NCBI GenBank assembly: GCA_038087875.1
Contig: CM075994.1
Location: forward strand, 3,040,001-3,104,000
DNA: 64,000 nucleotides
Source of the DNA: Malacoraja senta
Lineage: Eukaryota
Direction of reading: 5' to 3'
The notes under the pieces are model-generated. The model had not been told where the DNA came from. It was given only the letters and a program-made list of their open reading frames with translations, and searched no databases. The position numbers and the translations under genes were made by a program. This document shows positions 2,763 through 49,711 of the stretch, piece after piece (the first letter of the stretch is position 1; each line of letters starts with the position of its first letter).

Positions 2763-2789
2763 ATACCAAAACAGACAATTGTATAGCAG
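2763..2789 (+). CDS. Putative micro-exon, 27 bp, phase 1-1 (DTKTDNCIA)
   Basis: Acceptor ttttctag, donor CAG|gtgatg; open frame. Confidence 0.45.
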
Positions 2790-3233
2790 GTGATGTAATT
2801 ATTGGAACGTTTTAACTTATTTCCTTCTGATAATTTGCTCTGAAAAGTTTTTAAGACTTTCGCATTCTGAAAAGTACCGATAGCTCGTTGGACAGCTGAC
2901 GAAAACACCAGGTGTTAGATATATGACGCAAAAATATATAACTAAAATTATTAGCAGGGCCACTAATATTTCAATGGACTGATATATCTACCTACAACTT
3001 AGTAGTTATTTCATTCCCACAGTTACTCATCTGAATTGCCAAATAATTTGAGCATATGGTTTCCTTTCAAACGCAAAACTCCGCGCACGCAGCGAATTGT
3101 TGGTCAAGTGCCCCTCAATACAGTCGGATATGTGGTTCTGTGCTGCAGCGCAGATGTTCCGCATGGCATAAAATGAGAGGAGTGTTTTTTCTCTTCTTCT
3201 TTCAATGCAAATTCACGCACTTTGTCCTTTTAG

Positions 3234-3257
3234 ATCAGTGTCGCCTCGCACAAGGAA
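3234..3257 (+). CDS. Putative micro-exon, 24 bp, phase 1-1 (DQCRLAQG)
   Basis: Acceptor ctttgtccttttag, donor gtaatt; open frame. Confidence 0.5.
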
Positions 3258-3884
3258 GTAATTGCTGGACTGCTAAAATAATATTCTGACTATCATCGGT
3301 TTACTTCTCCCAATAGTATCGAAATTGAATAAGTGGAAACGCAGTGAAAGCCAGGAGGGGGTTATCTGTGCTTTTCGTTAGTGCTTTGTTTATTCTCGTC
3401 CCGGTTGGCGAGGGTGCCTGTGACATTTTCCTGTGAGTAACGCACTCAATAAATGTATTCATATCTTCAAAGGAAAGTCTCGCAGAATCGAAATGCCTAT
3501 TGTTGCTTACAGCAAAAACAATGTGATTGCCAATGGCACATTAGATAGGACAAACATCAAACAAGATATTGTATCTGATGATTGCAAAGCAGGACATACA
3601 GACAGACAGAGAATTTAATTGGCTGGGATAACCGAAAGATATGATGAAATGTGAGCATTTCTCGGTCCAACACGCGCATAATGTTTACATCATGGCGTCA
3701 ACATTCATAATGCTGAAGGATGACGACACTGTCTATTGCAAGTAGAGGTGGGTGCAGGCTTATAGTCAATTTTGATCGGCAGAAAATTAAAAATAGTTTG
3801 AATATCACCGTCTTTCAACAATTGTGATTAAACATATATGTGTGAAACAAAGTTACTGAAATACGCTTGCACTTATAATTTCAG

Positions 3885-3920
3885 AAATGCAGACTCTGAA
3901 AGGGAAATTGGGCATAACAG
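3885..3920 (+). CDS. Micro-exon, 36 bp, phase 1-1 (KMQTLKGKLGIT)
   Basis: Acceptor ataatttcag, donor CAG|gtaaat; open frame. Confidence 0.7.
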
Positions 3921-4076
3921 GTAAATATATACTATTCAATTGCATAATTGAAATGATAGTAAGTAGCTTACAATTTGTGGCATGATTTATGTTCTTTTTA
4001 AAACACAGTTGTCGATGTTCTTCCTGTATACCTAAAACATGTCTTTCATTAATTTGAAAAACAATTAAACGTTGAT

Positions 4077-5702
4077 ACTTGTCAAGTCTAGTCAAGTCAA
4101 GTCAAATCACTTTATTTCTGTAGCACAGTTAAAAAACAACTCTCGTTGACCAAAGTGCTTTACATTGGTGGAGGTACTAACGTTATACAACATTGGTTCA
4201 TAGATTACGTACATACAGAAATACATACACATAGCCCTCACTCAGAGGACGTCAAGAAAGGCTCGACAGTAAAGGTCAGATTTAAGTCTCGACTTAAAGG
4301 AGTCGATGGAGGGGGCAGTTCTGATGGGAAGAGGGCTGCTGTCCCACAGTCTAGGAGCTGCAACCGCAAAGTCGCGGTCGCCCCTGAGCGTATGCCTAGA
4401 CCGCGGGATTTTCAGTAACCCCAAGTCGGCCGATCTGAGGGACCTGGAGGTGGTGTGGTGGGTATGCAGACTCTGATGTAGGTGGGGGCAAGCCCGTTAA
4501 GGGCTTTTTAGACATAACGGAGGATCTTTAAATTTATTCTGAACCGCTCAGGAAGCCCGCGGAGAGAGGCCAGAATCGGGGTGATGTGGTCCCTTTTTCG
4601 TGTGCACGTCAGGAGTCGCGATGCGGCGCTTTGGACCAGTTGCAGGCGGGACAGGGAAAATTGGCTGATTCCAGTGTAGATGGAGTTGCAGTAATCTAGG
4701 CGGGAGGAGATAAACGTGTGGATGATCTTTTCGTGGTCGTCAAATTGGAGGAAATGTTTTAATTTAGCTATCGTCCGAAGCTGGAAGAAGTTAGCTTTTA
4801 CCACGGCATTGACTTGTTTGTCAAATGTCAATGCTGCGTAAAATATCACACCAAGGTTTTTGACGTGAGGTTTGAGTAATGGGGTAAGGCTTCCAAAACT
4901 GCCTGCTATCATGTTGATTCAGTCCGAGGGGCCGAGAAGGATGGCTTCAGACTTACTCTCGTTCAGTTGGAGGAAGTTCTGAACACTTTATATCCTCGAG
5001 GCAGCGGATAAGGTTGAGCAGATTTGATCGGTTTTTGGGCTTCAGGGGAGATAGAGTTGTGTATCAACCGCGTATCAATGGAAGGAAATGCCTTTGAATG
5101 ACGGCCTAAGGGGAGCATATTCAGGCAGAAGAGAATGGGGCCAAGGATGGAAGCTTGTGGAACCCCACAGCAGAGGCTAGCTGGGGAGGAGAAAGATTTG
5201 CCTATGTTAGTAGAGAAACTCAATTTGAGGTAGGGGATGAACCAGCTCAGGGCCGTGGCATCAATACCAAACCCGTACCGGAGACGGTCAATAAGATGGT
5301 GTGGTCGACAGTATCAAATGCTGCGCTGAGGTCGAGAAGGAGCAGGATTGCACAGTCGCCGGAGTGAACGGTGAGCAGTGGGTCATTATGTACCTTCAAC
5401 AAGCCAGACTCTGTGCTGTGGTGGGCCCTGAAACCTGATTGGAAAGTTTCCAAGATAGTATTTAGGTGAAGGTATGGTAGAAGATGACTTAAAATTAATT
5501 TTTGAAGGACTTTTAAAAGGAAAGGCTGTTTTGACATGGGTCTGTAGTTGCTTGGCAAGGTGGGGTAGGGTTAGGTTTTTTCAGGATGGGCTGGACCACC
5601 GCATGCTTGAAACAGGAAGGAACAGTTCCAGTGGCCAGAGAACTGTTGAAGATGGCGAGGATGCTGGGACCAGCTATTGTAATGGCATCCTTTAGAAGGG
5701 CA
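4077..5702 (-). mobile_element. 5'-truncated L2-clade LINE
   Basis: Motifs FQSGFRAHHSTES, LLDLSAAFDTVDH, GVPQASILGPILF, FISSRLDYCNS and AVAAPRLWDS; 3' tail of (TTGAC)n with AATAAA on the minus strand near 4080-4117. Confidence 0.9.
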
Positions 5703-5944
5703 AAGGTAATTTTTGTTGGTACTTATACAAACAAAACTGATATCGTCCAATCACTTATATCTGCACATGCACTATAATATGACCTTCATACCTCCGGAAT
5801 CGTTACCATTAATAAATCACTCCTTCATTTTAATTTGTTATATTTTTTAAAGTCTCTCTTTATCAGTCGTCTAAGACTATCAGAAAACGTTATTATTTTA
5901 AACGAAACCCGAATCTAAGATTGACAGAATATTATGGATTATCT

Positions 5945-6175
5945 AAGCGGGTCGGGCTTCATCTCTAGAGAAAAAGCGTAGGTGACGTTTCGGATCGGAA
6001 ATCTTCTTCAGACTTAAACCTGAAATCCTTGGTATCCTACCCTAAATTTATATTTTCTCTCGAGATGCTGCCTGACACAATGAGTTGTTTTAGAGATGCT
6101 ACGTGTCACGCTGAGGTACTTCAGCCTGTTTTGTCCATCTTCTGTATAAAACAGCATCTGGAGATCCGTTCAGCC
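5945..6175. repeat. Penelope-associated palindromic repeat with a hammerhead-like core on the minus strand
   Basis: Reverse complement of 5981-6014 reads agtCTGAAGAagatttccgatccGAAACGTCacc; gatgctgcctgac arm downstream. Confidence 0.55.
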
Positions 6176-6282
6176 CAGACTGTAAGCTGTATGCCTTTTA
6201 GTTATTTATTCTGGACTTCAGTATACAGTGGCATGAAAGCGCCCTAACTTTTGCTTTATTTATTGTATACATGCTACAACAG

Positions 6283-6306
6283 AGGAGGAGCTGAAAAAAA
6301 AAGAAT
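6283..6306 (+). CDS. Micro-exon, 24 bp, phase 1-1 (EEELKKKE)
   Basis: Acceptor caacag after a T-rich tract, donor gtgagt. Confidence 0.7.
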
Positions 6307-6412
6307 GTGAGTTTATTTAGAGTGCAAGAATGATTGACAATCTGATTGTCTTATCACTTGAGGATACATGTTACAATTTTAAGTGCAATAAACCGACGAC
6401 TGTATATTTCAG

Positions 6413-6451
6413 CTACCATTTTGGAGCTTCAGAATAAACTAAAGACCACCG
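6413..6451 (+). CDS. Micro-exon, 39 bp, phase 1-1 (STILELQNKLKTT)
   Basis: Acceptor tatatttcag, consensus donor G|gtaagt. Confidence 0.75.
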
Positions 6452-6909
6452 GTAAGTGAGAACAATAATGAAGTCCGTTGTTATTACTGACAACAACAAC
6501 AAAAACGTTGTCCAAATAACATAGGTGATTGTAAAATGTATCTCAGCTCGCACGTTAGACAACGTCAGATCTATAAATCAATACAATTGCAAATTGTTTA
6601 CATTTTGTCAAATGATTACGAATGTGCATGCAACATCAGGGAATCGTATCTTTTCTCCTACCTCCGCACGTCAACGACCCTACACACTTGTGGGCGCAGG
6701 TTGCTTTTTGTAAGCCCTTTTAACGCCTTCTCCCAATTACTTTCCCGTAGCGCAAATTTATCATTCTGCCATTTGTCACCAACACTATCGCTAGGTACCA
6801 CAGTTACTTGACTCACCAACCACTTCGCACACGGACTGTCGTTATTGAATTTCAATTCTATAATTTACAAAAAAAAAATCTCTGAATGTCATACGATTTT
6901 CCTTCTTAT

Positions 6910-7232
6910 AAACAATAGACAATAGACAATAGGTGCAGGATTACGCCATTCGCCCCTTCGAGCCAGCACCGCCATTCAATGTGATCATGGCTGATCATCC
7001 CCCATCAGTACCCCGTTCCTGCCTTCTCCCCATATCCCCTGACTACGCTCTCTTTAAGAGCCCTATATAGCTCTCTCTTGAAAGTATCCAGGGAATCGGC
7101 CTCCACCGCACTGAGGCAGAGAATTCCACAGACTCACAATTCTCCGTGTGAAAAAGTGTTTCCTCACCTCCGTTCTGAATGCCTTACCGCTTATCTTAAA
7201 CAGTGACCCCCTGGTTCTGGACTCCCCCAACA
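6910..7232 (-). mobile_element. CR1 3' end fragment
   Basis: Reverse complement of the CR1 3' UTR (atgatcagccatgatcacattgaatggcggtgctggctcgaaggg) with a (CTATTGT)n tail. Confidence 0.9.
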
Positions 7233-7496
7233 ATTCTTCTTATTTACTGACTTTATATTCAAGTTAAATCTGCAACAAAATGTCCGGGGAACGTATCTAG
7301 ATGGGAATTTTTGTTGGGAAACTGTAAGGAAATAAATCGCACACAAGAGGGATTTATATGCGCTTCACAAACAGATTTGCTAACACCGACGTTTCAGCTC
7401 ATAGCATCTCCTGTTTGAATCGTGCAAATTAAAGAATGGAAAGGGTGAACTAACCACAAGCTGTTCATATCATTCACTTCCATTTAATTTCAACAG

Positions 7497-7520
7497 AAGA
7501 TAACTTGGCAAGCAAAGAAG
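7497..7520 (+). CDS. Micro-exon, 24 bp, phase 1-1 (EDNLASKE)
   Basis: Acceptor tttaatttcaacag, consensus donor AAG|gtgagt. Confidence 0.75.
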
Positions 7521-8258
7521 GTGAGTTTATGGAAATGAATGTGAAGTGGGAAATATGATTTACAGTATTCTTGATAAACTGCATAGAATAATCGGTGACC
7601 TTGCTTCAGCACGGATGTTGTCTACTTTAACCTGGTTTCCCAACCGAGGCAGCAAGTAGACTATTTTAAATTATTGTTGTCTATTGCCTAGATCCATCTA
7701 AAGAAAATCAATTTAGTTGCAGGCATATGGCAAATATGCTATCCCTTTTACACTTTTAAATAAACATCTGCAAATATGTTAAAATGACAAGGTGTTGTGG
7801 TGGAAATGCTTATCCAGAACCAACGAGTAACGTCAAAATAAACAGTCGAAACCTATAATCTATAACGGCCAGAAACCATTTAACGCCAGGCGAGTAAAAA
7901 CAACGCAAATAAATTGCAATTCATACCGTTGCTAGAAGATGGATCTGTATTTTGTTTAATGTTTTAATTTTTTAATTTTTTATATAAATCAGATATTCCG
8001 TGATTTTTCAAGATGAATGTATTTATTAATAACAATGAAATCTTATTTTTCTAATTTATTTTCTTTATTTCTTTATTTTTCTTATCTATAAATATAAATA
8101 AATAATTAGAGGCAACGTTAATATGTAACCGATAAAGGAGGATCCCAGCTACTTTGGTAACTGGGTACCCGGAACCCTGCATACTTAATATGTAATCGTT
8201 ACAGAAAGTTTGTATTGGGTTGGACTATGATATGCAGATACCTCTAATTTAAAAAAAT

Positions 8259-8262
<4 letters not shown>

Positions 8263-8352
<90 letters not shown>
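8263..8352. repeat. (TA)n microsatellite
   Basis: Direct observation. Confidence 0.98.
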
Positions 8353-8794
8353 GGTGATTGTAAAACAATTGCGAATTGATTAATAACACATTGAAGAGTG
8401 ATTTACTCTTTGGAGTAACATAAGTTTAAAAGCATAATTTATTGAGATATATCCTTCTGAAGCAAAGGCCTGGAAGCGCCTCAAATTAGTCCAACAGAAT
8501 CAATATCATCTGTCAGTTTGACTTAAAACGCTGGAGTAACGCAATGGGTCAGGGAATAATTCTGAAGAAAAGGAACATGTTACCTTTCGGGTCGGACCCC
8601 TTTTTCAGATTGTACAGATTGATCAGACCAAATACAAACAGCCAGAAGAAAGCACCGAAACGTCAGCAATTACATTTCTACAGAGACGCTGCCTGACGTG
8701 CGGAGGTTCTCCAACATTGTGTGTCTCTCTTCGGTATAAGCCACCATCATTATTCCTTACCAACGCATCCACTGTCAGTATTTTTGCTGTTTGT

Positions 8795-11370: not shown

Positions 11371-12120
11371 TCGGTTTGCTGTACATTTATTCTGTCAGCA
11401 AATAAAATGTTGGCATGCTCAGCAAAGATTTCTGACACAGCCACTGTCTTTCAGTTGATTGAAAATTGTACAATTTGCCACAATGAAGAGGCGATTAGCA
11501 TTAATTAATTAATCGAGTGGTAATGGCAAAGATCACACTTTCAAGCTGCGGCTTGGCATGGACCTGGTCACATTTCCTCCAGATCCACATTTATGCTTTG
11601 GTTTGACATCTGCAGCTTTTATGGTACCTATTCAGTTGGCGTTATGAATCATACGCATATGTTCTGCGAATACGAAAGAAAACGCAAAAGTTGCATTAAA
11701 CATTAAACATTTCGCAATCGTTGACTCACCTTGTATGGACTCAGAACAAGTTTGCAATCGTGTGCAAACTCGATTTCGGAACACGCCGTCAATTTGTTCA
11801 GGCAGTCCCTTACAATGGCTAATTAAAAATAAACACCCCACACACTATTTTACTTATTTGTAATGGCAATTTAATTTGATTGTGTACTGCAGGAGTCCCC
11901 AGGCCACTAGTATCCATTTTTACTTGGATATCTGTGTTATATTTTAATGCGTATTCATTGTCCATCCAATTCACATTGAACTTATTTTACCATTGTCAAA
12001 AAACTTTTGAAAGCTCATGAATTATTCTTCAACTTTTCCAGGGAAATTGTTGAAAACATTATACTGTACTACTACATACAGGACACGGTGCAGGTCTGCG
12101 CCAATTATTTAGTTCCAGTC

Positions 12121-12531: not shown

Positions 12532-12881
12532 AGACAATGTTTCCATGACATTTAGAAAAACGATTGAACGTGAACACATTAATTTCCTGCAACTGACCTT
12601 ATTTTGACCATGCATAACGATTACGTATTCCCATGAAATAAAGTGAACAGATCGCGCTGACCTCCATCAACGTAAGGGAAGATGACCTGTCAATATAAAA
12701 TTGAATTACAATCAAAATCACGTTATCTTCTTTACAGTATAAATTAATCCGATCGCAAGATCATCCATATTTCAATGAAAACTTGTTATTTCCTAACGTT
12801 GGACGTTCTTCACCGCAAATGCGTACAGTAATTATAATGCGATAGCTAATTGGCACATATGCATCGCTATTATTATTCTAG

Positions 12882-12908
12882 GGCTTAAAAGAGACCTCAC
12901 AGGCATCG
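12882..12908 (+). CDS. Micro-exon, 27 bp, phase 1-1 (GLKRDLTGI)
   Basis: Acceptor tattattctag, donor G|gtaagt. Confidence 0.7.
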
Positions 12909-13760: not shown

Positions 13761-13793
13761 AAACGGACGTTCCGAAAAGCCCTCGCAGAAGAG
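13761..13793 (+). CDS. Micro-exon, 33 bp, phase 1-1 (ETDVPKSPRR)
   Basis: Acceptor ttttatgatttcag, donor GAG|gtaaca. Confidence 0.55.
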
Positions 13794-22759: not shown

Positions 22760-23980
22760 AGGTGCATTGCCATCCAGAGTGCAACCCTAACTATTCAAGC
22801 TGCATTCTAGGGTATGAAGGTACGGAGAGAGATTTGGAACAAACAGAAGGCAGCAACGATAATACAAGCAGCATTTAGAATGCACAGAGTAAACCGTCCA
22901 CACAGGGCAATGAGATTGGCAGCTATAATAGTACAAACCCATTATAGGGCACACATTCAAATGTAAAGTGATCGCAAGACATACATGACGGTACACAGCA
23001 GTGTTGTGCTGCTTCAGGCTGCATATCGAGGAATGCTTGTTCGAATGCAATTGCTGTGCATGCACAAATCTGCCAAGATCATACAGACTTATTTTCAGAT
23101 GCACAAATAGCGTCAGTGTTTCAAGAAACTACGCTGATCTGCCATTGCGGCACAGCAACGATACAGAGCTTGCCAGATAAGAGATGTCCAAGTGAGACAA
23201 TATAATAGTTTGAGAAAAACTGTGGTTTGTATTCAGGCCTTCTACCGCGCGATTAAAGCCAGAGAATTGGTTGAAAAAATCAAGGCTGCACGCTGTATGA
23301 AGTCATTCTTAATGACGTGCATTATAAGAAAACATGTATTGATAAAAACGCGGCTGTAGTCACTCTGCAAATGCATATCGTGATTACCGATCAAAGGTAC
23401 GTTACAGAGCTATGCTACAAGCAGTCATTTCGAACCAGAGTTGATACAAAGCATGTAAAATAGGACATTCCAAGTGTGTGCAATATCAGTCCATGAGGTA
23501 TGTTTCTATTACCATTCAGACTGCCTACAAGGATGTGGTGGTAAGGCAATGGGTTATGCAAAAGAGAGCTACTATAAAAAGGCAGTCAGTGCTCCGTATG
23601 AGTTGGAATAGGAAAGACTTCCTCAAACTGCATTATACAGCAGTTATAGTGCAGTCTCACTACCGTGCTTATAAAGCAAGAAAACTATACGGTGCACAAA
23701 TCAAAGCCACTGTTGTTTTGCAAATACAATATAGATCTTACATGTTGATGAAGAACCAGAGATGTGACTTCACTGGACAAATAGATGAATAACAGAAAAG
23801 GCTTAAACGATACAAAAGGCTTAAACGATATACGACAGACTTCCTCAAACTGAAATATACCGCAATTGTAGTGCAGTCCCACTACCTTGCTTATGAAGCA
23901 AGAAAACTATACAGAGCGCAATTCAATGCCACTATTGTTTTGCAAAGACAATATAGATCCTACTTCTTGATGAATAACCA
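22760..23980 (+). pseudogene. ASPM: Captured ASPM-like IQ-motif array with stops and frameshifts
   Basis: Manual translation: IQAAF*GMKVRR, IQAAFRMHR, VQTHYRAH, LQAAYRGMLVR, IQTYFQMHK, AQQRYRA, IQAFYRAIKAR, IQTAYK, VQSHYRAYKAR, LQIQYRSY. Spacing and motif style resemble the large IQ exon of ASPM. Confidence 0.75.
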
Positions 23981-24703
23981 GAAAGGTAATTTAAGAAGAC
24001 AAATAGATGAACAACAGAAAAGGATTAAATGGTACAAAGAACGATTAAATACATGTGTGACGATGAGCAAAAAGGTGTTAAAAGAAAAGTCTAATGAAGA
24101 GAGGCTTGTCGGTCGAGACAAAACAATGCAGGACCGATTGCGATTAGGACACTCACTTTAGTCCAGCATGGAGCCTCCTACACTGAGCAATGGACAAATG
24201 GTTATGCATTGCAGAATGTCATTAAACAACAAGAGCAGATAAATACGCAGCGAATGGAAATTGAACAACAGGGGAAGTTGCTAGAAAACGAAAACTTGCA
24301 GCCATGGGTCAGATCCCATCTACAAAGAGGAAACCAAAGCAAATACATGAACCAGAAAATGAAACGCAGAATATCAGGAACAGGAATAAATTTGCAAATT
24401 AGATTAGGACATTTAAAAGGGAAGAAGCAGAGATACATGCAGAGCTAGAGGGATTAGAATGTGTTAGCAATGTATACATAAATGAGCGGAAAATGATAAC
24501 ACATAAAGCAAGTGGTAATGTATTTGGTTTAAGGAAGATGAGTGGAATGAAAAATTATATGCTAAGTTTAGATACCATTATTACAGTTATGATGATGTAA
24601 TTTAAGATGTCCGCAATAATACAATTTTGCAACAGTGTGTTAATCAATTATATTTAATGTAATATAAATGGTGTTATCCGCCTCCAATTTAAAGTGGGAG
24701 CAG

Positions 24704-25558: not shown

Positions 25559-25594
25559 ATATCGAAACATTGCAAAGGCTGCTTAGAAAAGCAG
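25559..25594 (+). CDS. Micro-exon, 36 bp, phase 1-1 (DIETLQRLLRKA)
   Basis: Acceptor tttgcctttaag, donor CAG|gtgaga. Confidence 0.75.
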
Positions 25595-27450: not shown

Positions 27451-27477
27451 AGGAGAAGTCGGCCAAATTGGATGCAG
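27451..27477 (+). CDS. Micro-exon, 27 bp, phase 1-1 (EEKSAKLDA)
   Basis: Acceptor gattctatag, donor CAG|gtaaga. Confidence 0.75.
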
Positions 27478-28181: not shown

Positions 28182-28217
28182 TCCTTCAGAGACTTAAACA
28201 TACTTTGCAAGAAAAAG
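28182..28217 (+). CDS. Micro-exon, 36 bp, phase 1-1 (VLQRLKHTLQEK)
   Basis: Acceptor tttttccacag, donor AAG|gttagg. Confidence 0.75.
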
Positions 28218-30746: not shown

Positions 30747-30773
30747 ACACCGCTCTCGAGAAACAGGCCGACG
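30747..30773 (+). CDS. Micro-exon, 27 bp, phase 1-1 (DTALEKQAD)
   Basis: Acceptor ttatattacag, donor G|gtacag. Confidence 0.7.
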
Positions 30774-34500: not shown

Positions 34501-34547
34501 ATATTCTGTCCATAGTTATACATTTGCCATGAAGATATCTGTGTAAC

Positions 34548-36550
34548 CATATAACCAAATGTTGACTGTTCCTAATCAGACCCTGCTTATCCAGATGCTT
34601 ATATATATTATCTTTAAGTATCCTTTCCATTAATTTGCCCACCACTGACGTCAAACTAACAGGTCTATAATTGCTATGTTTACTCTTCGAACCCTTTTTA
34701 AACAACGGAACAACATGCGCAGTACGCCAATCCTCCGGCACTATTCCCGTTTCTAATGACATTTGAAATATTTCTGTCATAGCCCCTGCTATTTCTACAC
34801 TAACTTCCCTCAATGTCCTAGGGAATATCCTGTCAGGACCTGGAGACTTATCCGTTTTCATATTTTTCAAAAGTGTCCGCACCTCCTCTTCTTTGAATAT
34901 CAGTTTCCATTGCTACTCTGCTTGTTTCCCTTACCTCACATAATTCCATATCCTTCTCCTTCGTGAATACCGAAGAAAAGAAATTGTTCAATATCTCCCC
35001 CATCTCTTTTGGGTCTGCAGATAGCTGTCCACTCTGACTCTCTAATGGACCAATTTTATTCCTTGTAATCCTTTTGCTATTAATATAGCTGTAGAAACCC
35101 TTTGGATTTACTTTCACCTTACTTGCCAAAGCAACCTCATATCTTCTTTTAGCTTTTCTAATTTCTTTCTTAATATTCTTTTTACATTCTTTATACTCCT
35201 CAAGCACCTCATTTACTCCATGCTGCCTATAATTATTGTAGATATCTCTCTTTTTCCGAACCAAGTGTCCAATTTCCCTTGAAAACCATGGCTCTTTCCA
35301 TTTTTTACTATTTCCTTTCAACCGAACAGGGACATAAAGATTCTGTACTCTTAAAATTTCACCNNNNNNNNNNNNNNNNNNNNNNNNNNNNNNNNNNNNN
35401 NNNNNNNNNNNNNNNNNNNNNNNNNNNNNNNNNNNNNNNNNNNNNNNNNNNNNNNNNNNNNNNNNNNNNNNNNNNNNNNNNNNNNNNNNNNNNNNNNNNN
35501 NNNNNNNNNNNNNNNNNNNNNNNNNNNNNNNNNNNNNNNNNNNNNNNNNNNNNNNNNNNNNNNTTTTCAAATTCATTATCCACAGCCCCACCTATCTTAG
35601 TATCATCTGCATACTTACTAATCCAATTTACCACACCATCATCCAGATCATTGATGTACATGACAAACAACAGTGGACCCAACACAGATCCCTGTGGCAC
35701 CCCACTAGTCACTGGCCTCCAACCTCACAAACAACCATCCACCTCTCTGGCATCTCCCATTCAGCCACTGTTGAATCCATCTTGCTACTCCACCATTAAT
35801 ACCCAACCATTGAAACTTTTTAACCTACCTTCCGTGAGGAACCTTGTCAAAGGCCTTACTGAAGTCCATATATACAACATCCACGGCTTTACCCTCATCA
35901 GTTTCCCGAGTAACCTCTTCAAAAAATTCAAGAAGATTAGTCAAACATGACCTTCCAGGCACAAATCCATGTTGACTGTTCCTAATCAGCCCCTGTTTAT
36001 CCAGATGCGTATATATATTATCTCTAAGTATCCTTTCTATTAATTTGCCCACCACTGACGTCAAACTAACAGGTCTATAATTGCTAGGTTTACTCTTAGA
36101 CCCCTTTTTAAACAATGGAACAACATGCGCAGTACGCCAATCCTCCGGCACTATTGCCGTTTCCAATGACATTTGAAATATTTCTGTCATAGCCCTTGCT
36201 ATTTCTACACTAACTTCCCTCAATGTCCTAGGGAATGTCCTGTCCGGACCTGGAGACTTATCCACTTTTATATTTCTCAAATGTGTCAGTACTTCCTCTT
36301 CTTTGAATCTCATAGTTTCCATAGCTACTCTACTTGTTTCCCTTACCTCACATAATTCAATATCCTTCTCCTTGGTGAATACCGAAGAAAAGAAATTGTT
36401 CAATATCTCCCCCATCTCTTTTGGCTCTGCAGATACCTGTCCACTCTGACTCTCTAATGGACCAATTTTATCCCGCGTTATCCTTTTGCTATTAATATAG
36501 CTGTAGAAGCCCTTTCGATTTACTTTCACCTTATTTGCCAAAGCAACCAC
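34548..36550 (-). mobile_element. CR1 family B fragments, minus strand, on both sides of the assembly gap
   Basis: ORFs 34493-34882, 34848-35591, 35359-35712 and 35825-36763 match family B ORF2. Confidence 0.9.
35364..35563. other. Assembly gap (200 N)
   Basis: Run of n. Confidence 1.
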
Positions 36551-38473: not shown

Positions 38474-40470
38474 GATCTACCCTTCTCCCTCTCCAATTGT
38501 AGATTATAACTGACCATGTTATGGTCACTACCTCCAAATGGCTCATTCACCTCGAGGTCCTTTATTAAAACCCGTTCATTACATAACACTAAATCCAGAA
38601 TTGCCTTCTCCCTGGTAGGCTCCAATACAAGCTGTTCTAAGAATGCCTCACGAAGGCACTCTGCAAAGTCCCTTTCTTGGGGATCAGTATCAACCTGATC
38701 ATCCCAGTCTACCTGCACGTTAAAATCTCCCATAACATCCACAGCATTATTTTTGCTACATGCCATTTTTTACTCCTGATTCAACGCGCTCTATGTCCAG
38801 GCTACTGTTTGGAGGCCTGTAGATTACTCCCATTAGGGTCCTTTTACCCTTACAATTCCTTAGTTCTATCCAAACTGACTCCACATCTCCTGTTTCAATG
38901 TCACCCCTTGCAAGGGACTGAATTTCATTCCTCACCAACAGAGCAACCTCACCCCCCCTGCCCACCTGTCTGTCTCATCGAAAGGAGGTATCCCCTTGAA
39001 TATTCAGTTCCCAGCTCTGGCCCTATTGCAGCCATGTCTCACTAATTCCCACAACATCATTGTTACCCGTTTATAACTGAGCCTCAAGCTCGTGCACTTT
39101 ATTCCTTATACTTCGCGTATTCATAAACTGCACTTTGCCCTCCGTATTCACTTCCCCCCTCGCACCGCTCGCAATTGGCCCTGAGCTTACTCTGTTGTCC
39201 CTTCTCGAGATTTCCTTCTCGAGCTTTCCATCCCATTAATTCGATAATCTTTAGTGATTTTTCCTGTAGCCACTTCACCTTCAACTCCATCTTTAGACTC
39301 CCAATTTGTCAATCCCTCCTCCCATTCTTTAGTTTAAATCCACACGTGTAACGCTAACAAACCTGCCTGCCATAATGTCGGCCCCCCTCCAGTTGAGGTG
39401 CAACACGTTCCTTTCGTACAGGTCACCCCTACCCCAGAAGAGATCCCAGTGGTCTATAAATCTAAATCCTTTCTCCCTGCACCAGTCCCTCGGCCACACA
39501 TTCAGATCCCCTACCTCCCTGTTCCTTTCCTCACCAGCACGAGGTACTGGAAGCAATCCAGAGATAACCAACCTAGAAGTCCGGCATTTCAGTCTTCTTC
39601 CCAACTCTCTGAACTCATGTTGGATAACCTCCTTCCACTTCTTCCCTATGTCGTTTGTGCCTACGTGCACAACTACTGTCGGCTATTCACCTACTCTCTC
39701 GAGGATGTTCTGTATTCGGCTCGTGGCATCCTGAACCCTGGCACCAGGGAGGGAACAGACCATCCTCGCGTCTCGTCTGCCCCCACAGAACCTCTTGTCC
39801 GCTCCTCGAACAATGGGGTCTCCCACCACGAGGGTTCTGCCCGATGTCGGTCTCGCCGGTCGAGTCCCATCTCTAGGATTGGAGCCATAGATGTGTCCGC
39901 CGCTCGGACAGGAAACATCGTCTCCCCGGACAGTTCCCAAGAGGGCGTACCTGTTATCATTAGGCACAGCCACCTGGGTCTTTTGCACTGCACGATTTAT
40001 ACCCTTTCTCTCCGGCACACACCTTGGTTCTTCCCGTATCCTCGGCGTGACTACCACCTTGTAGGTCCTGTCCAGGTTTTCCCGGATTGCCCTGACTTCA
40101 TCCAGTGCCCCAACACGTTCCTTTAGGAGCTGAAGGTGGAACCACTTGCCACAGGTGTAGCAGCCAGAGGTTCCATCCGTGTCCCTGGGCTCCACCATTC
40201 TGCAAGCCTCACATTGTCACATCTGCCACGGCATGTGGTCACCGCGTTCTGTGCTCTCGAGATTTATGCGTAGCCTCCTCTCGTCAGCCTCCTCGCCGAA
40301 GAATCTCGAGCCAAAGACACACACTTTACTCACAAGGCACTTCCAAAGAGGCACACTTTACTCATAAGGTTGCTCCCTCACTGCCGCTCCCAAAGAGCCG
40401 TCTTTCTTATATTGACTGATAAATTGCCTAATTTACCAATTTACCAATTTACAAACCAGATTCCTAAGTT

Positions 40471-41112
40471 TTAAACTGTTTCCCCCCCTGACTCACTTCT
40501 AACTCGCCTCCCACTCGGGCTACAGCAAATCAGTGCTTTTTCCTGCTACTCTTTGCTGTTGTTTCTTCAAAATCTACGGAAGCACTGAGTTTCGTCTGTC
40601 TATGTTTTGCCGCTCTTTTTAAACTGTTTTACACCTCTGACTCACTGCTAACTCTCCTCCCATCGGGCTACAGCGAATCAGTGCCTTTTCCTGCTTTTCT
40701 TTGCTGCTGTTTCTTCAAAATCCTCGGAAGCACTGAGTTAAGTCTGTCTGTGTGTTGACGCTCCTTTTAAATTGTTTCCCCCCTCTGACTCACTTTTAAC
40801 TCTCCTTCCACACGGGTTACAGCCAATCAGTGCTTTTTCCTGCTTCTCTTTGCTGCTCTTTATACAAAATCCACGAAAGCTCTGAGTTCTGTGTGTGCTT
40901 TGCCGCTCTTTTTAAACAGTTTTACCCCTCTGACTCACATCTAACTCTGCTCCCACTCGGGCTACAGCAAATCAGTGCTTTTTCCCGCTTCTCTTTGCTG
41001 CTGTTTCTTCCAAATCCACGGAAGCTCTGAGTTAATTCTGACTGTGTTTTGCCGCTCTTTTTAAACTGTTTTCCCCAACTGACTCACTTCTAACTCTCCT
41101 CCCACTCGGGCT
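40471..41112 (-). repeat. About 4.3 x ~148 bp tandem monomers at the CR1 5' end
   Basis: Unit ttaaactgtt...ctgactcacttctaactc...cgggctacagc starts near 40471, 40619, 40767, 40912 and 41061. Confidence 0.9.
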
Positions 41113-41114
41113 GA

Positions 41115-42500: not shown

Positions 42501-42849
42501 CGTTACTGAAAATTTGTCCCGTTATAATTGTTGGAATAAAGAACACGAAACACCTTTGCATGTCACGGGCATTTCATTTAATTGTCAATAGAAGACAATT
42601 TAATATCTTCACAGAGCGTTGACTCTTTATTTCATGGATAATTAATGTTCACGGATTTTTTGAGGTAGACAACGTGTAGGAAACAATCGAAATCTTACGT
42701 ATTATACATAATAAATTCCCATGTCTAGAAGTTCCCCATGTCGCCCATTTATTTTAACTGTGCCCAGGATACTGATGCGGCCTTTATCACGCCCTCTGCA
42801 TGTCATGTGGGATAACCTATACTTATTTTCATACATTTGATATTAACAT

Positions 42850-43295
42850 ATGATGAGCGTTTGAGTGCACTGGGCCTGTATCGCTGGAGTTCAAAACAAA
42901 GCGGGAATGGTCTCATTGAGACGTACAGCACAATGAAAGGCTTGGATGAAGTGGATGAGTAAAGGATGTTTCCACCAGTGATATAATCTAGGACTAGCGG
43001 TCATAGCCTCAGAATTAAAGGACGTTCTTTTAGGAAGGAGATGAGGATTATTATCGTTAGTGAATCTGTGGAGTTCTTTGCCTCAGAAGGCTGTGGAGAC
43101 TAAGTCAGTGGATGTTTTTTAGACAAAGTTTGATAGATTCTTGATTAGTACAGTTGTCAGAGGTTATGGGGAGAGGTCAGGGGAATGGGGTTAGCAGGGA
43201 GAGATATATCAGCCATGATTGAATGGTGGATAAGACTTGACGGGCCGAAATGCCTTATTCTGCTCCTATCACATATGATCTTATGATCTTATGAT
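42850..43295 (+). mobile_element. Old CR1 3' fragment
   Basis: atatgatgagcgtttg...cagccatgattgaatgg...(TATGATCT)n tail. Confidence 0.85.
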
Positions 43296-43704
43296 TTGTG
43301 TTGCCTCCTTGGTCAATAAATTTAGTCATCATGTGCAATATTAATATACAGCAGATTTATACTTATGGCATCACCCGCGCTCTTTCAGGTTTGGTTTTAT
43401 TCATTTTAACTGCATAGACAGTATCTGGTTGATTTTGATAAACGTTCAAAGCTCACGAACATGTTGAGAACCATGCCATAACTGGCTAAAATAAAATGAT
43501 TCATTTTCTAGGCCAAAAATTGCTTCCAAATAGATTGGTCATCGGTCTATTAGTCCGCAAATTATTGTATTGCCATGTTTGGGCTTCCGTTCCAAATAAG
43601 GCAAGCATTATGTATAGTTTACATAACATTTAATAAAACACTAATAACAAAACATAATTAAGTGGAAGCAATCAAATGGTAACACGATTTGTGTTCGTTT
43701 TCAG

Positions 43705-43740
43705 ACGTGGCGACGGTAACTGCACAGCTGCAAGATTGTG
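43705..43740 (+). CDS. Micro-exon, 36 bp, phase 1-1 (DVATVTAQLQDC)
   Basis: Acceptor ttcgttttcag, donor G|gtacgt. Confidence 0.72.
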
Positions 43741-44123
43741 GTACGTTTGCCTACCCATCTGTTTCTCATGTGGATATCAGCAATCCAGCAAAATATATGG
43801 CATACCTGATTTGATCATCCGTGGACTGCGTCCTGCAGAACGTATCTTCCTGTCTGAAACTTTTCTGTGTGTAAAGTCCGACATTGTTTACATTTTGCAA
43901 ACGATTTCATGCATACTCAATATATTGACGCCTTTTAGAAATACATGCGGCATATGAAGCATGCTATAAAAATTGGGTGGTAACAATTCCAGTTTTCCCA
44001 TGTCTAAAATGTTTGAATTAACTTAAAAGAAAATTATTCACGTACTGTTATTCTACAATGTAATGATTGTTCATTTGTTCCCTGATACTCTGATGATTAT
44101 CAACGCCACTATAATTATTTTAG

Positions 44124-44150
44124 CGAAAAGTCTACTCGAGAAGAAAACTG
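44124..44150 (+). CDS. Micro-exon, 27 bp, phase 1-1 (AKSLLEKKT)
   Basis: Acceptor attattttag, donor CTG|gtgagg. Confidence 0.75.
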
Positions 44151-45188
44151 GTGAGGAAATGCGTAATCATTGTTCGGTTTAAATTTGTATATTTTCAATA
44201 AAATCATATCGTTGCCAAGCAATTTCGTTGAGCTGTGGCACACTGCACATTCTTAGATATATTAAACATGGATTATTTTCCACTAGAGGTGCACTCATGG
44301 GGTTTAAGGTGAATGACTGTCATCCTTCAGGGCCTTTCCTTTTATTCCTTCTCAATTGCTCCATGAAGTTGGCTTCTGCATGTTGGAACATGAAAGCTGA
44401 AGAAGAACGGGTAGTTAAGCCGGCAACATTGATCTTCCGGGAGCAGTTGCATTCAGCAAAGTGTCCGACAATGAGTTATTGTCATCGGTAGCTCGAGTAT
44501 TGCTTGCGTCACATTATTTACGTCAAGGCTAGCAGTCATAAGGAGCAACAAACATAAACATTGGATTGGAATAATGCGTTCGCGGACATGGTCCACTTAA
44601 AATCTTTATTTCCCTTTGCACTATATTCATTATATTTTGGACATTTGTAACATTTCCAATTCAATGTTTGGATTAATATTAATGTGCTTACATTTTAGTT
44701 GCTGACTTTTATATCGTTTAATTCTGTTATGTACTTTAGTGATACAACGTATGGCTAGTAACTAGACCAATGCTCTTTCGTGTCAATTATCTAGCTTCGT
44801 CACGAAGACGTGCTACTTTTATTCGACTGTAGGCACAGTTCGTTCACATCTGGAATTTGCATCGTTGATTCCTGTTGAGACGAAAACTGGCATAAGTTCC
44901 GGAGATGAAACGTTCAGAAGAAACATAAATTAGGTTTTGAGGAATATGTTATTTCTGAGTAAGTTCCAACAAGTTATGAATGTCTTAGAGCTATAGAAAT
45001 AATGGTTTCCCAATACACATGCAACAGCACTTCATTGACATTGGCAACGACACATCACTTTTCTGATTTATGTTGGATATACATCAATTGTATTGTGGTC
45101 CAGCACTTCAGGACTTAAAATATCACAATGTAATTCCACTAAAATGTAGCTTTCCATATATGTTTTAATGTTTCTGATTTACCCACAG

Positions 45189-45224
45189 AACTAGATGATG
45201 TGACTAAAGCTCTACTCGACGCTG
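45189..45224 (+). CDS. Micro-exon, 36 bp, phase 1-1 (ELDDVTKALLDA)
   Basis: Acceptor tttacccacag, donor CTG|gtacgt. Confidence 0.75.
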
Positions 45225-46068
45225 GTACGTGGGGAAGTATCATTCAAATTGTTCTGTTATATCCTGCGTCGGAATAGAAGATCAATGTTCAGCTTCTTAC
45301 TGAGATGTTGTTTGAAGAACAAGCAGTATAATTGTTTTATATTTTAATACTTGGCAAACATATTGATTATAAAATAAACAGCACCATGTTATCGTGAAAT
45401 CTATGCATTTCAAAGTGCAAAAACAGTAAGAGTTTAAAAACGAACCACTTCCCAATCTCCCGGAAATCTTAGGGGATGTTGTTAAGGAATACACAATGTC
45501 AGGGGATTTTAGGGGATTAAAACCATACATACAAAAATAGTAACGTTTGTTTTAGTGCAACAATTGTATGTAACAACAGTACATCAAAGCAGTGGCTATT
45601 TCGATTGAAACAAAAAAAATGATTTTCGCACAACGCAAATGATTCGGAGCGAAATTCCATTTAACTCCTTATAAAACATATTAATTATTCAAACGAATAA
45701 ATATATAATAAAATATATTCATATAATACGGAAAAGGAATCTTGTAGAAATGGTGGCGTGACGTTTATCAAATTATGTATACACAGCAGCTCAACTCTTG
45801 GGGTTATGATTTTTTTTGGAACAGCAATCGAAGAAAGGACAGACGCACACTTTAGTATGATGGTGTCATCCATAACACATTGCAAATTATCAATGTTAGA
45901 GCCCATATCGCTAGTCATCCCTTTGTTTCACAAGCAAATATATTCGTTGTATTAAGGAGAGTGGAAATAAGTATTAACATTTCGGATGGTGAATGTAGGG
46001 CTCCTTGGATTGGTTAGATGCTTTGCTGCGAAAATATGCATGAATCAATAACTATTTATGTTTGATAG

Positions 46069-46095
46069 AACGAACTTTAAGCCGGAAAAAAAAAG
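46069..46095 (+). CDS. Micro-exon, 27 bp, phase 1-1 (ERTLSRKKK)
   Basis: Acceptor tttatgtttgatag, donor AAG|gtaatc. Confidence 0.72.
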
Positions 46096-46237
46096 GTAAT
46101 CTCAGGCACGAGAGGCTGCTTTTTTTACGGCTGAATATTACCAAATTGTACAGAATATTTTCGAAGTAATAATTTCAAACGACTATTAATTTAATTCCAC
46201 TGTTAGTAATTGTATTAAACATTTTTCTCACATTTAG

Positions 46238-46264
46238 AAATAATTGAACACGTGGAAGAGGACG
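46238..46264 (+). CDS. Micro-exon, 27 bp, phase 1-1 (EIIEHVEED)
   Basis: Acceptor ttttctcacatttag, donor G|gtgagg. Confidence 0.72.
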
Positions 46265-47252
46265 GTGAGGAACTATGTTTTAAAGAGCCAATAAGTATGC
46301 TAATAGATATAGGATAGGGTGGGTCATCCTCAATGGAAAGCAGTCAATGCGGTGACTACGTTATTTATTAATGTAAGAGAGCCACAGTTACAATATATAT
46401 TGAGAATCGGTTTTTTTTCTGGGAAGGGACTTTAAATATCAAATGTTTAGTGTGCTGCGTAACAAGTCTAAAGGAGTTCTGAAGAGTTGAGTTTTCACAC
46501 CAGCTGGTTGTGAATACCTGGACTAAGCTCTCAAAAGGCATGATGTTGACCGATACAATAATAACGATTGAAAGACGTTTCCACAAGCACTTGGATAGGG
46601 AAGGAGTGGAGGAAACGGGCGTAATTCAGTCAAGTGGGATTTTAAAAAGTAGTGCACCGCATTTGGCATGGATAAGGGTACGATTTTATTATTCTAATTT
46701 CTTAAAGGGGAATTGTTCAATGTGAAAAAGGTAACCTAGGAAAGTCAATTTTTACTTAGCAACAGACCACACGTTGAGAAAGTGACATGTTTTTAATACC
46801 TAGGTCATTCAATCGATATTATGCATGGAAATAAGGCTGCTACCGTATTGGGTAGCATCGAAGTTCAGCTCGGTAATGTTTTAGCGATCACTCCTTGCGA
46901 ATTTCATAAGGACGTTAAGACACTTGTTCCTCTCTGTGTTTAGCAGCGATAGTGAAAGCAGTTGGAACTACACCAAACATGACCATCTTATTACTTGCAT
47001 ATTTGCTTCCTTTCATTGCATGAAAACGAACGAAAGCAAAGTGTCATGTAACCACAATATAATCATTATATCTAACGCTCATAAATTATTTGTTTAAGAT
47101 ATCGCATGTACGCCGTTGCTTTGGAATAATGAGTTGATGTCTACGTCCATAAAACAGCAATCATGCCGAGTATCGTATCATCAGGCTGGGAAATATAGTA
47201 CAGACAATTTAGACTCTAAATTACCATATTTATTGTTTTCTTCATCACGCAG

Positions 47253-47279
47253 AGAGAGTGGCGCTTGAGATACAGAGAG
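47253..47279 (+). CDS. Micro-exon, 27 bp, phase 1-1 (ERVALEIQR)
   Basis: Acceptor ttttcttcatcacgcag, donor GAG|gtgaat. Confidence 0.7.
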
Positions 47280-48449
47280 GTGAATACTTTTATATTATTT
47301 CGCCTTGATATAAAACGGGTCTTGACTGCCGGACCAGTTTCACACGATAACTGGGAAAACGTGCAATATTACATTTGCACATATGCCACTGTAAATGTAG
47401 CTTTCGTGCCAAATGGTACGTGTGTATTTGAAACAATATGATATTTCAAATTTACTTACTGGGCCAATATTCCGCACAATAATCGGCCCATTTTATTTTG
47501 CACAAATAACTTTCCCTCAAATTTAATCGGCAACATTTCTTTACCTCACCTTTGCGATACGAGCTCTGAGCAGACATTGTTATGTGCGTGAGAAGACTAT
47601 GCCAAAACGATGTTAACCTCTATCCTGATTGCAATGTGAATTGCAAATCGAATTTCACTATATCTTAATTGGTATATTTGACAATAAACTGAACTTGAAT
47701 TATATATGATGGAAGCGTATTATTGCGTTGGCATTTAATTGATCATGGAACTTTGGAACGTACTTTTGACTCTCTCTTCTTGCGAATTGATGCGTCTTGT
47801 TCATGTATGCATTCATGCTGTACTTTACTTGCAGTTCCAGGATTTAGATTGTGTGTTGCCGCTATCATAACTCGAAGCGCGGAGGGCACATGATGTTTGC
47901 AGAAGTCCCAGTATCATGTTTACCATAACTTTGACCTCGATTATTTGGAATTTTAACTCGAATTAACCAATAGGACAAAACACAATTTTACAAGGATGCC
48001 ATTTTGACATGGTTTTGTTTTTTTGTTTTTTTAATCCACATGGCAGGCTTTATTTTGGTCGTCTTTATTACAGGTGAAAGGCAATACTGCAAAATGACAA
48101 TTTAAAATCAGGAGACGTTTCCTTGGAAAGAAAGTCAGAATGAATTACTACTCGTCTTTATTGTTGGATTTTCTCTTTGTTCCCTTCCGAAGTACTAAAG
48201 TGAAGCGTGGCTAAGGAGTTGCCTGAAACGTTGAAAAATGCAGTGAATGCTTCACGCTAAAATTTAATCAACTATTGTTAGCATGCGTTTTCGGCAAGTC
48301 CTGAGGATATATTCTTCCCTGAAATTACGTGTAGAGCGCAATGACGAAATCACGATTTGAATAACTTTGCTGCCTATTAACGGGGAATGTGCAAAGCATT
48401 GATTAATGTTTGCCCGTATTTAATTCACAATATTTGCATTTTATGTTAG

Positions 48450-48485
48450 AGAAAGAGAGATTGGCTAGAGTTCAAGAGGATATTG
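48450..48485 (+). CDS. Micro-exon, 36 bp, phase 1-1 (EKERLARVQEDI)
   Basis: Acceptor ttttatgttag, donor TTG|gtaaag. Confidence 0.72.
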
Positions 48486-48771
48486 GTAAAGTTGACATTT
48501 AATTATTTATTTTCTTTATAAAACGTATTTAAATGTGTTAAGAAAAAATACAAAAAAGAATGGCATACTTGTATGTTCAAACAAAATCTGTAGATAAAAC
48601 AGAGTGTTAGCCGATAAGGCAACAAAAAACATTAAACATTTTAGGAATGCATATCGCCTTCTACTGATTTCATAATTGTTCATAACAATTCCCGTCCACC
48701 AATTTGTGCACTTCTACTTTCGCTATATTGTGATATCACATGTATTGTTAACGGCTCACGTTTTTCAACAG

Positions 48772-48798
48772 AGGAACTGCTGGCTTTAGAATTTCTAG
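48772..48798 (+). CDS. Micro-exon, 27 bp, phase 1-1 (EELLALEFL)
   Basis: Acceptor tttttcaacag, donor TAG|gtagtg. Confidence 0.65.
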
Positions 48799-49684
48799 GT
48801 AGTGTATCATCGTGAATATACTAATCTCTAAAAATCTGCAGAAAACTGCCACATTAGCATTTTTAAAATCTCCTTCTCTATTGTCCTTCGCGGATGAAAT
48901 ATGTCATCTTTTATAACTGTGTGTTACCTGAGACCTACAAACCGCCACTGTATACGTAAGTCCTAATTTAGTTCCGCAATGCATATTAGTATAATAATAG
49001 TTTTTCACCACATAATATCTGACTGACAGGAATTTATTAGCATTTTTATCAGTTCATGTCTCATATTTACGCTCATTGTAACTCCTCTACCATTTGAATG
49101 TTCTTCTTAAATTTAGCTGAATCTTTAATTAACATCATTCATTCGCATAAAACCTGTTTCATCGTTAATATAAAGTCATGCAAATAGACGAATGAAATGT
49201 TTTCGCTGCATTTGTCGAAGTTGTTAATGTGACCCTCAAACCGAATATCAGATTGGAGACGTGCTGCACAAACTGTCCATTTCAATCCCTGAATGGACAT
49301 CTTAATGGAATCACTTCATACAATACTTTTGTAATTCTTGTCGCCAGCCTTCAATAATTATTCTAAAGAGTACAAACAATTGAAGATCGACAATTAATTA
49401 TTATGTGTCTGCATCAACAGATTCATAATAAGTACATTCTGGTTAACATTGCGTTTGGAATAATCATGTCAACGTTGCCAGTCATTTAAGCTGTACAACG
49501 CGAGGAAGGCGATCTGCTCTTCATTCCTTGTTTTTTGTACCTGTTTCAATTGAAATGAAAAGCCTAGCAAGCTCCTATCATGATAGCATCACACCTGCAA
49601 CGATTCATTATTACAGACGTTATTTACGCAGTCACCTCCTTTTTTTTAAACATTTTAATACAATGTTCATCAACCCTTCTACAG

Positions 49685-49711
49685 AAATAAAAAGCCTCCG
49701 TGATAACTGCG
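49685..49711 (+). CDS. Micro-exon, 27 bp, phase 1-1 (EIKSLRDNC)
   Basis: Acceptor cccttctacag, donor G|gtaagt. Confidence 0.72.

Follow-up and report, generated by a model that had tools for sequence, protein, structure and literature searches.

What is encoded by a row of very short, splice-site-bounded segments scattered among transposons in the genome of the skate Malacoraja senta? The stretch concerned, hereafter the window, comprises 64,000 nucleotides of contig CM075994.1 (positions 3,040,001 to 3,104,000, or G000:C18:3040001-3104000 in our notation; assembly GCA_038087875.1, 1.94 Gb in 6182 contigs). The original prediction, made from the letters alone, held that 21 segments on the + strand are symmetric phase-1 micro-exons of a hidden host gene, which code for a long coiled coil serving as the tail or stalk of a receptor-like protein. 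We examined about 360 kb, namely the window with 100 kb upstream and 196 kb downstream; window-relative positions are negative upstream of the window and exceed 64000 downstream of it. The hidden gene, its symmetric micro-exons and the coiled coil are borne out, while its size was understated (97 candidate exons, in a multigene family) and the receptor tail or stalk finds no support. It appears that the skate possesses a real and large family of micro-exon coiled-coil genes, apparently unannotated.

At each of the 21 positions, AG stands just before and GT just after an exon of the length given in the table below, and all 21 are symmetric and in phase 1. Joined, they form 630 nt; the phase-1 frame has no stop, while the two remaining frames have 13 and 15. 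They had also been placed outside transposons. Of the 21, 20 are clear of sequence repeated in the examined DNA, and exon 48772 is counted as repeated only because a decayed copy of it sits at about 50940. The same exon, with those at 3234 and 2763, is among the weakest of the set. Two DNA read sets indicate that 43265-49827 is single-copy, with evenly covered introns.

Selection of the exons by eye is addressed by three kinds of test. A splice model based on introns only, with the 21 window exons as its training set, was applied to both strands of the flanks; in the reverse direction, a model trained on 75 flank exons, using intron features with or without residue composition, was applied to the window; and a generic vertebrate splice model scored window candidates of 21-42 nt. 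In the flanks, + strand candidates peak at 27 nt (34 candidates) and 36 nt (21), against 3-16 at other lengths, and the - strand has no such peak. A similar density on the minus strand had been named as a refutation; out of sample, the 27- and 36-nt candidates make up 55 of 336 on the + strand and 11 of 285 on the - strand (Fisher P 1.9e-7). Upstream of about -51 kb the excess vanishes, with counts of 4/66 (+) and 3/59 (-). Unselected flank candidates of these two lengths are open in phases 0, 1 and 2 in 19, 31 and 23 of 37 cases downstream, and in 9, 16 and 9 of 18 upstream. When the flank-trained model combines splice features with residue composition, its top 16 + strand phase-1 candidates in the window are all exons of the original prediction. 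At a score of 14 it retains 17 candidates in + strand phase 1 versus 0, 1 and 1 in the three - strand phases; scores in + strand phases 0 and 2 mostly reflect the same exons read in other frames. With the generic model, length is divisible by 3 in 20 of 29 + strand versus 5 of 19 - strand candidates. The stop-freeness of 96 joined exons relative to shuffles (mean 55 open) is not counted as evidence, this comparison being circular because the exons were picked as stop-free. As predicted from the DNA, the micro-exons are almost certainly real exons.

The row does not end with the window, which holds about one fifth of it. Candidate exons follow one another over 310 kb, from C18:2989442 (window-relative -50558) to the 97th at C18:3299939, and the 3' end is not reached. 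The first 96, when joined, code for 928 residues with no stop; the next 6 kb downstream contain a long terminal repeat (LTR) element and one further 27-nt exon. Among the first 95 exons, 51 are 27 nt long, 27 are 36 nt, 10 are 24 nt and 3 are 21 nt. The median intron is 1.6 kb and the longest 26.6 kb, giving a coding share of 0.9% for the whole chain. Its first exon (27 nt, C18:2989442) includes an ATG and could be the gene start. Some members of the list are uncertain (for example those at window-relative -16494, 129329, 163325, 176594 and 203128), and the list excludes two further candidates of the window, at 24272 (36 nt) and 23520 (21 nt). Exons may be missing or misordered because there are assembly gaps in the window (200 bases at 35364-35563, between LINE, or long interspersed nuclear element, fragments of changing orientation) and at four further places in its flanks. 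These exons may belong to a single gene or to more than one (see below).

The order of the exons is far from random. Of 27 exons of 36 nt, 25 have a 27-nt exon as their next neighbour downstream, versus 14.6 expected (0 of 20000 permutations), and two 36-nt exons are never neighbours, versus 7.3 expected cases (P 5e-5). Neither 9 nor 12 residues is a multiple of the heptad; only the pair is, with 21 residues or three heptads. Across 25 such units, the hydrophobic share at positions 2, 5, 9, 12 and 16 is 0.80, 0.96, 0.48, 0.44 and 0.88. Position 2 is mostly Ile, position 5 mostly Leu, and position 19 is Lys in 15 of the 25, the a/d residues of a unit being Ile, Leu / Leu/Gln, Ala / Leu, Lys. 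Over 95 exons the strongest hydrophobic period is 3.52 residues, and the a/d score is 4.67 versus 4.08 +/- 0.10 in shuffles, none of 300 reaching the observed value. The window peptide, for which the coiled coil had been claimed, agrees by itself, with a heptad hydrophobicity of 5.3 out of 8 versus 4.2 +/- 0.2 (5.3 is reached by 0 of 1000 shuffles). Glu makes up 14% of the residues, Lys 13%, Leu 12% and Pro less than 1%, and there are two Pro-containing hinges, each with an S-P-R motif. No hydrophobic segment is found in the chain (maximal 19-residue hydropathy 0.51). Coiled coils with Ile at a and Leu at d tend to form parallel dimers, and a rod is loosened by Ala or Lys in its core. From this residue pattern the product is, with high probability, a coiled-coil rod; the architecture itself is well supported from DNA. 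Neural micro-exons regulated by Srrm3/4 carry a TGC motif just upstream of the acceptor. This signature is absent from the chain (24 of 67 short exons and 10 of 29 longer ones, at a background of 0.33).

The chain bears marks of its own growth. An exon together with its intron is duplicated on the same strand at window-relative 78789-79363 and 95238-95808 (84% identity), and further duplicates of this kind pair 71055-71542 with 72338-72840 and 67928-68263 with 71265-71602. Within the window, 48770-48916 pairs with the decayed copy listed in the table, which directly precedes a DIRS-type insertion. Repeat exons are up to 89% identical, while their 40-nt flanks are mostly near background. The proportion of nonsynonymous differences (pN) is below that of synonymous ones (pS), at 0.38 vs 0.45 for nine 36-nt exons and 0.42 vs 0.58 for twelve 27-nt exons. 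A search for an intronless or retroposed copy of the 36+27 motif gave 0 matches. This is a pattern in which exons are born and die while selection acts on them. The rod has grown by tandem duplication of exon plus intron, the exons being kept as their flanks decayed, and units are lost likewise. Gain, loss or skipping of an exon never breaks the frame because every exon is symmetric, and gain or loss by pairs would also keep the heptad register. Low-copy tandem duplication is seen, too, in 1-4 kb intron blocks with 24-nt exons (window 63541-64383, and L012, 67800-73700); a degenerate exon copy lies near 68008 in tandem-duplicated blocks.

The locus is not alone. Patterns combining the exon consensus with splice sites match 4 of the 6182 contigs, namely C18, C5, C4876 and C4996, of which the last two may be alternative haplotypes. 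The matches span 3.12-5.82 Mb on C18, with one on the - strand at 5.08 Mb, and 15.41-17.80 Mb on C5. Against the control, the patterns gave 4 vs 0, 9 vs 3 (all nine on the C18 + strand), 22 vs 0 and 22 vs 0 matches; 16 matches of each set of 22 lie outside the examined DNA, on the four contigs. Opposite orientations and separate contigs therefore indicate several genes.

What might the product do? The best overall explanation, to which we give somewhat better than even chances, is a multigene family of micro-exon coiled-coil rods that are cytosolic, probably B30.2-ended and active in innate immunity. The window would lie midway along a very large and transposon-riddled locus of this skate family, whose members would be long alpha-helical coiled-coil rods coded almost wholly by phase-1 micro-exons, with the 36 nt + 27 nt pair (21 residues, three heptads) as building block. 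If the chain of candidates is one gene, its product would have at least 930 residues and, at the coiled-coil rise of 0.148 nm per residue, measure about 140 nm. We infer that it is expressed and that it is most likely a parallel dimer in the cytosol, where it would serve as a spacer or scaffold. A membrane anchor is likely to be absent. A C-terminal B30.2 (PRY-SPRY) recognition domain is probable, if only modestly so. With it, the protein would act like a TRIM or a BG/butyrophilin tail minus the RING or the immunoglobulin (Ig) and membrane parts, in innate immune sensing, although we propose this immune role only tentatively.

The surroundings of the chain bear on the last two points. Genome-wide profile scans covered the best 150 of about 690 PRY-SPRY candidates and the best 150 of 561 B-box candidates. 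Among those scored, PRY-SPRY matches occur on C18 from 4.56 Mb onward, to 11.63 Mb, and B-box matches at 10.1-11.0 Mb. Twelve single-exon AIG1-like GTPase open reading frames (ORFs), most of 900-1270 codons, lie on the same contig at 1.0-1.4 Mb (1.05-1.37) and 7.0-7.6 Mb. Such clusters are typical of fast-evolving immune genes. The PRY or SPRY and B-box candidates, which lie on many small contigs as well as on C18, also amount to a very large TRIM/PRY-SPRY expansion in this genome.

Several results weigh against the B30.2-ended rod or parts of it. No B30.2 exon occurs in the 360 kb examined, the nearest scored + strand PRY-SPRY (C18:4559072-4559554) lies 1.26 Mb beyond the last exon of the examined DNA, and among the candidates scored none is listed near the C5 matches. 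Given the candidate stop exon at 50151-50217 and gaps of 21-27 kb, the chain may fall into shorter genes. The ratio pN/pS is just mildly below 1, and the exon pairs compared are not independent. On intron features only, the flank-trained model finds the strands of the window alike (14/95 on + vs 11/91 on -, P 0.67). Lastly, a later profile of the rod found no match among 2828 candidates of 71-2000 residues, although the database includes a skate protein set. This profile recovers the chain's own product at E 6e-18 and a version with 10% of residues changed at 4e-13, and it misses one with 20% changed; the blank is thus weak evidence that no near-identical annotated product of 71-2000 residues exists. 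Searches of proteins with a first profile carry no weight because that profile is blind to the chain's own product, which it scores at E 4e4. One of these searches gave no hit; the other, in the representative library, gave two, which were perfect tandem repeats, one of them bacterial, and were rejected as artefacts of summed weak matches. Single 40-residue stretches likewise fail to recover the chain's own product (best E 27). A literature search, whose coverage left out most subscription papers as well as supplements, returned no paper describing this gene type.

The same rods could instead be the products of a tandem array of shorter genes, of about 200-400 residues each, coding for pure coiled-coil rods without a globular domain that would form filaments or tethers in the manner of tropomyosin or golgins. 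One member would then end in the window, at the 67-nt exon 50151-50217. When entered in phase 1, this candidate exon reaches a stop after two full codons and could end a gene or a short isoform. Its donor is strong (the exon median is 8.4), but its acceptor (median 8.6) falls in the weakest quarter, and it is single copy in the genome, with no counterpart elsewhere. Large gaps follow it and recur at +135 to +161 kb, and the exon type found near the start of the chain (-46907) is back at +248138, with only 2 matches in the genome, and at +259939, as if a new gene began there. Pattern matches on both strands and several contigs speak for multiple genes. Against this, no first or last exon is identified in any gap of the chain, and the blocks, which end in similar length patterns, have no significant sequence similarity at their ends (P 0.09, 0.81, 0.92). 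We regard such an array as unlikely, while taking it more seriously than the explanations that follow. Two side observations concern gene ends. The 67-nt exon is also open from phase 0 to 1, with an ATG, and may have other roles; and an AG/GT-bounded, purine-rich candidate of 37 nt at window 57817-57853 (+, donor 9.5, not symmetric) is a possible untranslated or first exon.

Alternatively, the rod could form the cytoplasmic tail of a type I membrane protein of the BG/butyrophilin kind, whose signal, IgV and transmembrane exons would lie outside the examined DNA or have been missed; they might, for example, stand upstream of FoxG3, and FoxG3 would in that case sit inside an intron. This is close to the original prediction. 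It is favoured by the design of BG tails, which are arrays of 13-36 split-codon micro-exons coding for heptads, by the B30.2 ends of butyrophilins, as outlined in PMC4046983 and PMC5938342, and by the abundance of B30.2 on the contig. The original prediction had itself noted no Ig, transmembrane, B30.2 or lectin exon in the window, and this remains so across the roughly 360 kb examined, including the flanks whose inspection it had proposed. A BG/butyrophilin- or CD23-type receptor is not supported because of this. Thus, 145 acceptor-anchored phase-1 ORFs over 345 kb yield 3 Pfam matches, all of transposon type, and no Ig, B30.2 or lectin match. Neither signal nor IgV exons are found among the upstream exons or ORFs within 100 kb upstream, nor is any Ig or transmembrane exon found between FoxG3 and the first micro-exon or in the gaps. 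Among 11 weak candidates for a transmembrane or signal exon none is convincing, and none lies upstream of the chain. V-set and C2-set matches are absent from C18 among the candidates scored (best 150 of 1517 and best 150 of 289), as are kinase domains (best 147 of 601), and by inspection there is no RING/B-box ORF upstream of the chain. Exons of 21 nt number 3 of 95, against nearly all in BG. The locus is not classed as BG/butyrophilin because the Ig, transmembrane and 21-nt exon tests failed, and we consider a hidden receptor of this kind quite improbable. Two apparent membrane segments were discarded: a hydrophobic, transmembrane-exon-like ORF at L005:8642-8779 is repeat-like DNA without usable splice sites, and a hydrophobic run behind the exon at L019:670, a would-be C-terminal anchor, arises only from reading on into the intron beyond a good 36-nt donor.

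It is very unlikely that the rod serves as a stalk outside the cell for a type II or secreted recognition protein, such as a CD23/DC-SIGN-like lectin, a scavenger receptor or a protein with a C1q or fibrinogen domain. The 21-residue periodicity does resemble that of the CD23 stalk, but the a/d pattern resembles that of a dimer more than that of a trimer. PMC514892 names a Fugu lectin whose coiled coil is extra-large. However, on C18 or near the C5 cluster there is no match to Lectin_C (29 matches genome-wide from 112 of 112 candidates, though short split exons may escape), C1q (45/45 scored), Fibrinogen_C (49/49) or SRCR (best 150 of 309), no transmembrane or signal exon is found, and N-glycosylation sites are not enriched (1 vs 2.7 expected, not significant). 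Finally, a dead gene, or chance splice-like sites in AT-rich intronic DNA, would fit the lack of a homologue with the later profile, the repeated 46% of the window, the decayed exon copies and the window-only intron test, but is scarcely credible given the out-of-sample peaks at exactly 27 and 36 nt on one strand only, the strict 36-27 order, a heptad register kept across introns of up to 26 kb, exons better conserved than their flanks, and splice sites still intact in paralogues that lie megabases off.

The B30.2-ended cytosolic rod can be extended into a bolder proposal, which we consider conceivable though rather doubtful. Cartilaginous fishes would carry an expanded family of giant genes (hundreds of kb, with at least 100 micro-exons each) coding for B30.2-capped molecular rulers of adjustable length, built of interlocking 12- and 9-residue modules and forming an ancient, membrane-free branch of the TRIM/butyrophilin/BG lineage. 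Length would then be tuned by exon birth and death between paralogues and by paired skipping within a gene, and the family would fill megabases of the genome yet escape annotation.

The chain begins about 40 kb from FoxG3, in head-to-head orientation, with nothing receptor-like in between. This neighbour, at L002:8025-9116 on the - strand and some 91 kb before the window begins, is an intact single-exon forkhead gene of 363 aa. A Leucoraja erinacea FoxG1-like protein shares 98% identity with its C-terminal half, and proteins named G1b are among the best matches of the gene in bony fishes. Since foxg1b corresponds to FoxG3 in PMC10789856 (see PMC5901865 for the background of FoxG naming), the neighbour is, by sequence, FoxG3 of foxg1b type. 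The paralogue is assigned by sequence alone because none of the synteny markers LSM, Cation_efflux and Striatin is among the matches listed on C18.

Mobile DNA is plentiful around the exons, 46% of the window being repeated within the examined DNA. The window transposons comprise LINE reverse transcriptases, a GDSL-type LINE ORF1 and a DIRS-like element. The latter (51100-55940, -) includes a gag-like ORF, a reverse transcriptase, a tyrosine recombinase and a Dam-like methyltransferase match below the cut-off; a second copy (72%) lies at window-relative 194912-197310. Tandem repeats with open frames occur at 23608-24038 and 40469-41112 (222-nt and 149-nt units), the first of which reads as IQ-like and basic and may belong to a mobile element. 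Farther along, a Pif1 helicase fragment (Helitron-like, L023:6351-7133, +) sits within a chain intron, and a degenerate gypsy-type LTR retrotransposon (L031:1780-5760, +) lies between the last two exons of the examined DNA.

Table. Exons and related features of the window, with the scores of the flank-trained model
Feature	Length (nt)	Position	Strand	Score	Remarks
Phase-1 micro-exon	27	2763..2789	+	11.7	weaker
Phase-1 micro-exon	24	3234..3257	+	9.7	weakest
Phase-1 micro-exon	36	3885..3920	+	20.1	
Phase-1 micro-exon	24	6283..6306	+	16.1	
Phase-1 micro-exon	39	6413..6451	+	21.9	63 nt with the preceding 24-nt exon
Phase-1 micro-exon	24	7497..7520	+	19.2	
Phase-1 micro-exon	27	12882..12908	+	19.7	
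Phase-1 micro-exon	33	13761..13793	+	14.9	Pro-containing hinge with S-P-R motif
Phase-1 micro-exon	36	25559..25594	+	20.3	
Phase-1 micro-exon	27	27451..27477	+	21.9	
Phase-1 micro-exon	36	28182..28217	+	19.0	
Phase-1 micro-exon	27	30747..30773	+	20.0	
Phase-1 micro-exon	36	43705..43740	+	16.7	
Phase-1 micro-exon	27	44124..44150	+	16.2	
Phase-1 micro-exon	36	45189..45224	+	18.4	
Phase-1 micro-exon	27	46069..46095	+	18.2	
Phase-1 micro-exon	27	46238..46264	+	12.5	
Phase-1 micro-exon	27	47253..47279	+	18.2	
Phase-1 micro-exon	36	48450..48485	+	19.5	
Phase-1 micro-exon	27	48772..48798	+	10.4	weak donor, decayed duplicate at ~50940
Phase-1 micro-exon	27	49685..49711	+	13.5	last symmetric exon found in the window
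Candidate exon	67	50151..50217	+		not in the original prediction; donor score 9.6, acceptor 5.4
Decayed duplicate of exon 48772 and downstream intron		50938..51076	+		74% identity, donor lost, indel

The locus is a sign of an entire gene family out of reach of standard annotation and homology search, in a region that, with so little coding DNA, resembles a transposon desert. The split-heptad pair design predicts exon skipping in 36+27 pairs. How the vertebrate spliceosome defines exons is also put to an extreme test by so long a run of tiny exons between introns of several kilobases. If the B30.2 end is true, the family is relevant to how butyrophilin/BG tails arose and to the innate immune repertoires of sharks and skates.

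Among known systems, the micro-exon genes (MEGs) of schistosomes share mostly symmetric exons of at most 36 nt, families in transposon-rich DNA and exon duplication, according to PMC8293314. In the skate, 94 of 95 chain exons are at most 36 nt and all are symmetric. MEGs, described in the same source as confined to schistosomes, differ in that their products are small, carry signal peptides and are secreted or placed at the surface, with a high ratio of nonsynonymous to synonymous substitution rates (dN/dS), whereas the skate rod is a vertebrate, periodic coiled coil in which no signal peptide is found. The resemblance is an analogy of design, not homology.

The stalk of CD23 is built of a 21-residue repeat, each coded by one 63-nt exon, where the skate locus has the 36+27 pair and no lectin or transmembrane exon found. 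Necks of the CD23/DC-SIGN type and Fugu XLCMCL, as named in PMC514892, have in common with the skate rod a long coiled-coil stalk built of repeats. Mammalian butyrophilins and TRIM-B30.2 proteins place a coiled coil before B30.2, as we infer for the skate locus, whose contig is rich in PRY-SPRY and B-box genes. Unlike the skate rod, butyrophilins have just a few heptads, as given in PMC4046983. TRIMs carry their own RING/B-box, and none is seen at the skate locus.

The closest likeness in layout is that of chicken BG, of the butyrophilin/B7 family. BG genes are clustered, and their tails are coded by 13-38 split-codon exons per gene, each of 21 nt (18-24) and one heptad, behind signal, IgV and transmembrane exons, according to the accounts in PMC4046983 and PMC5938342. 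Both systems consist of multigene clusters in which a coiled coil is put together from many symmetric split-codon micro-exons in variable number, with possible truncation by alternative splicing. The skate differs by its paired 36+27-nt unit and by some 97 exons over 310 kb with no Ig or transmembrane exon found, a consecutive run that would be about three times the longest BG tail described in these two papers. By analogy, the skate rod may work like BG/butyrophilin tails.

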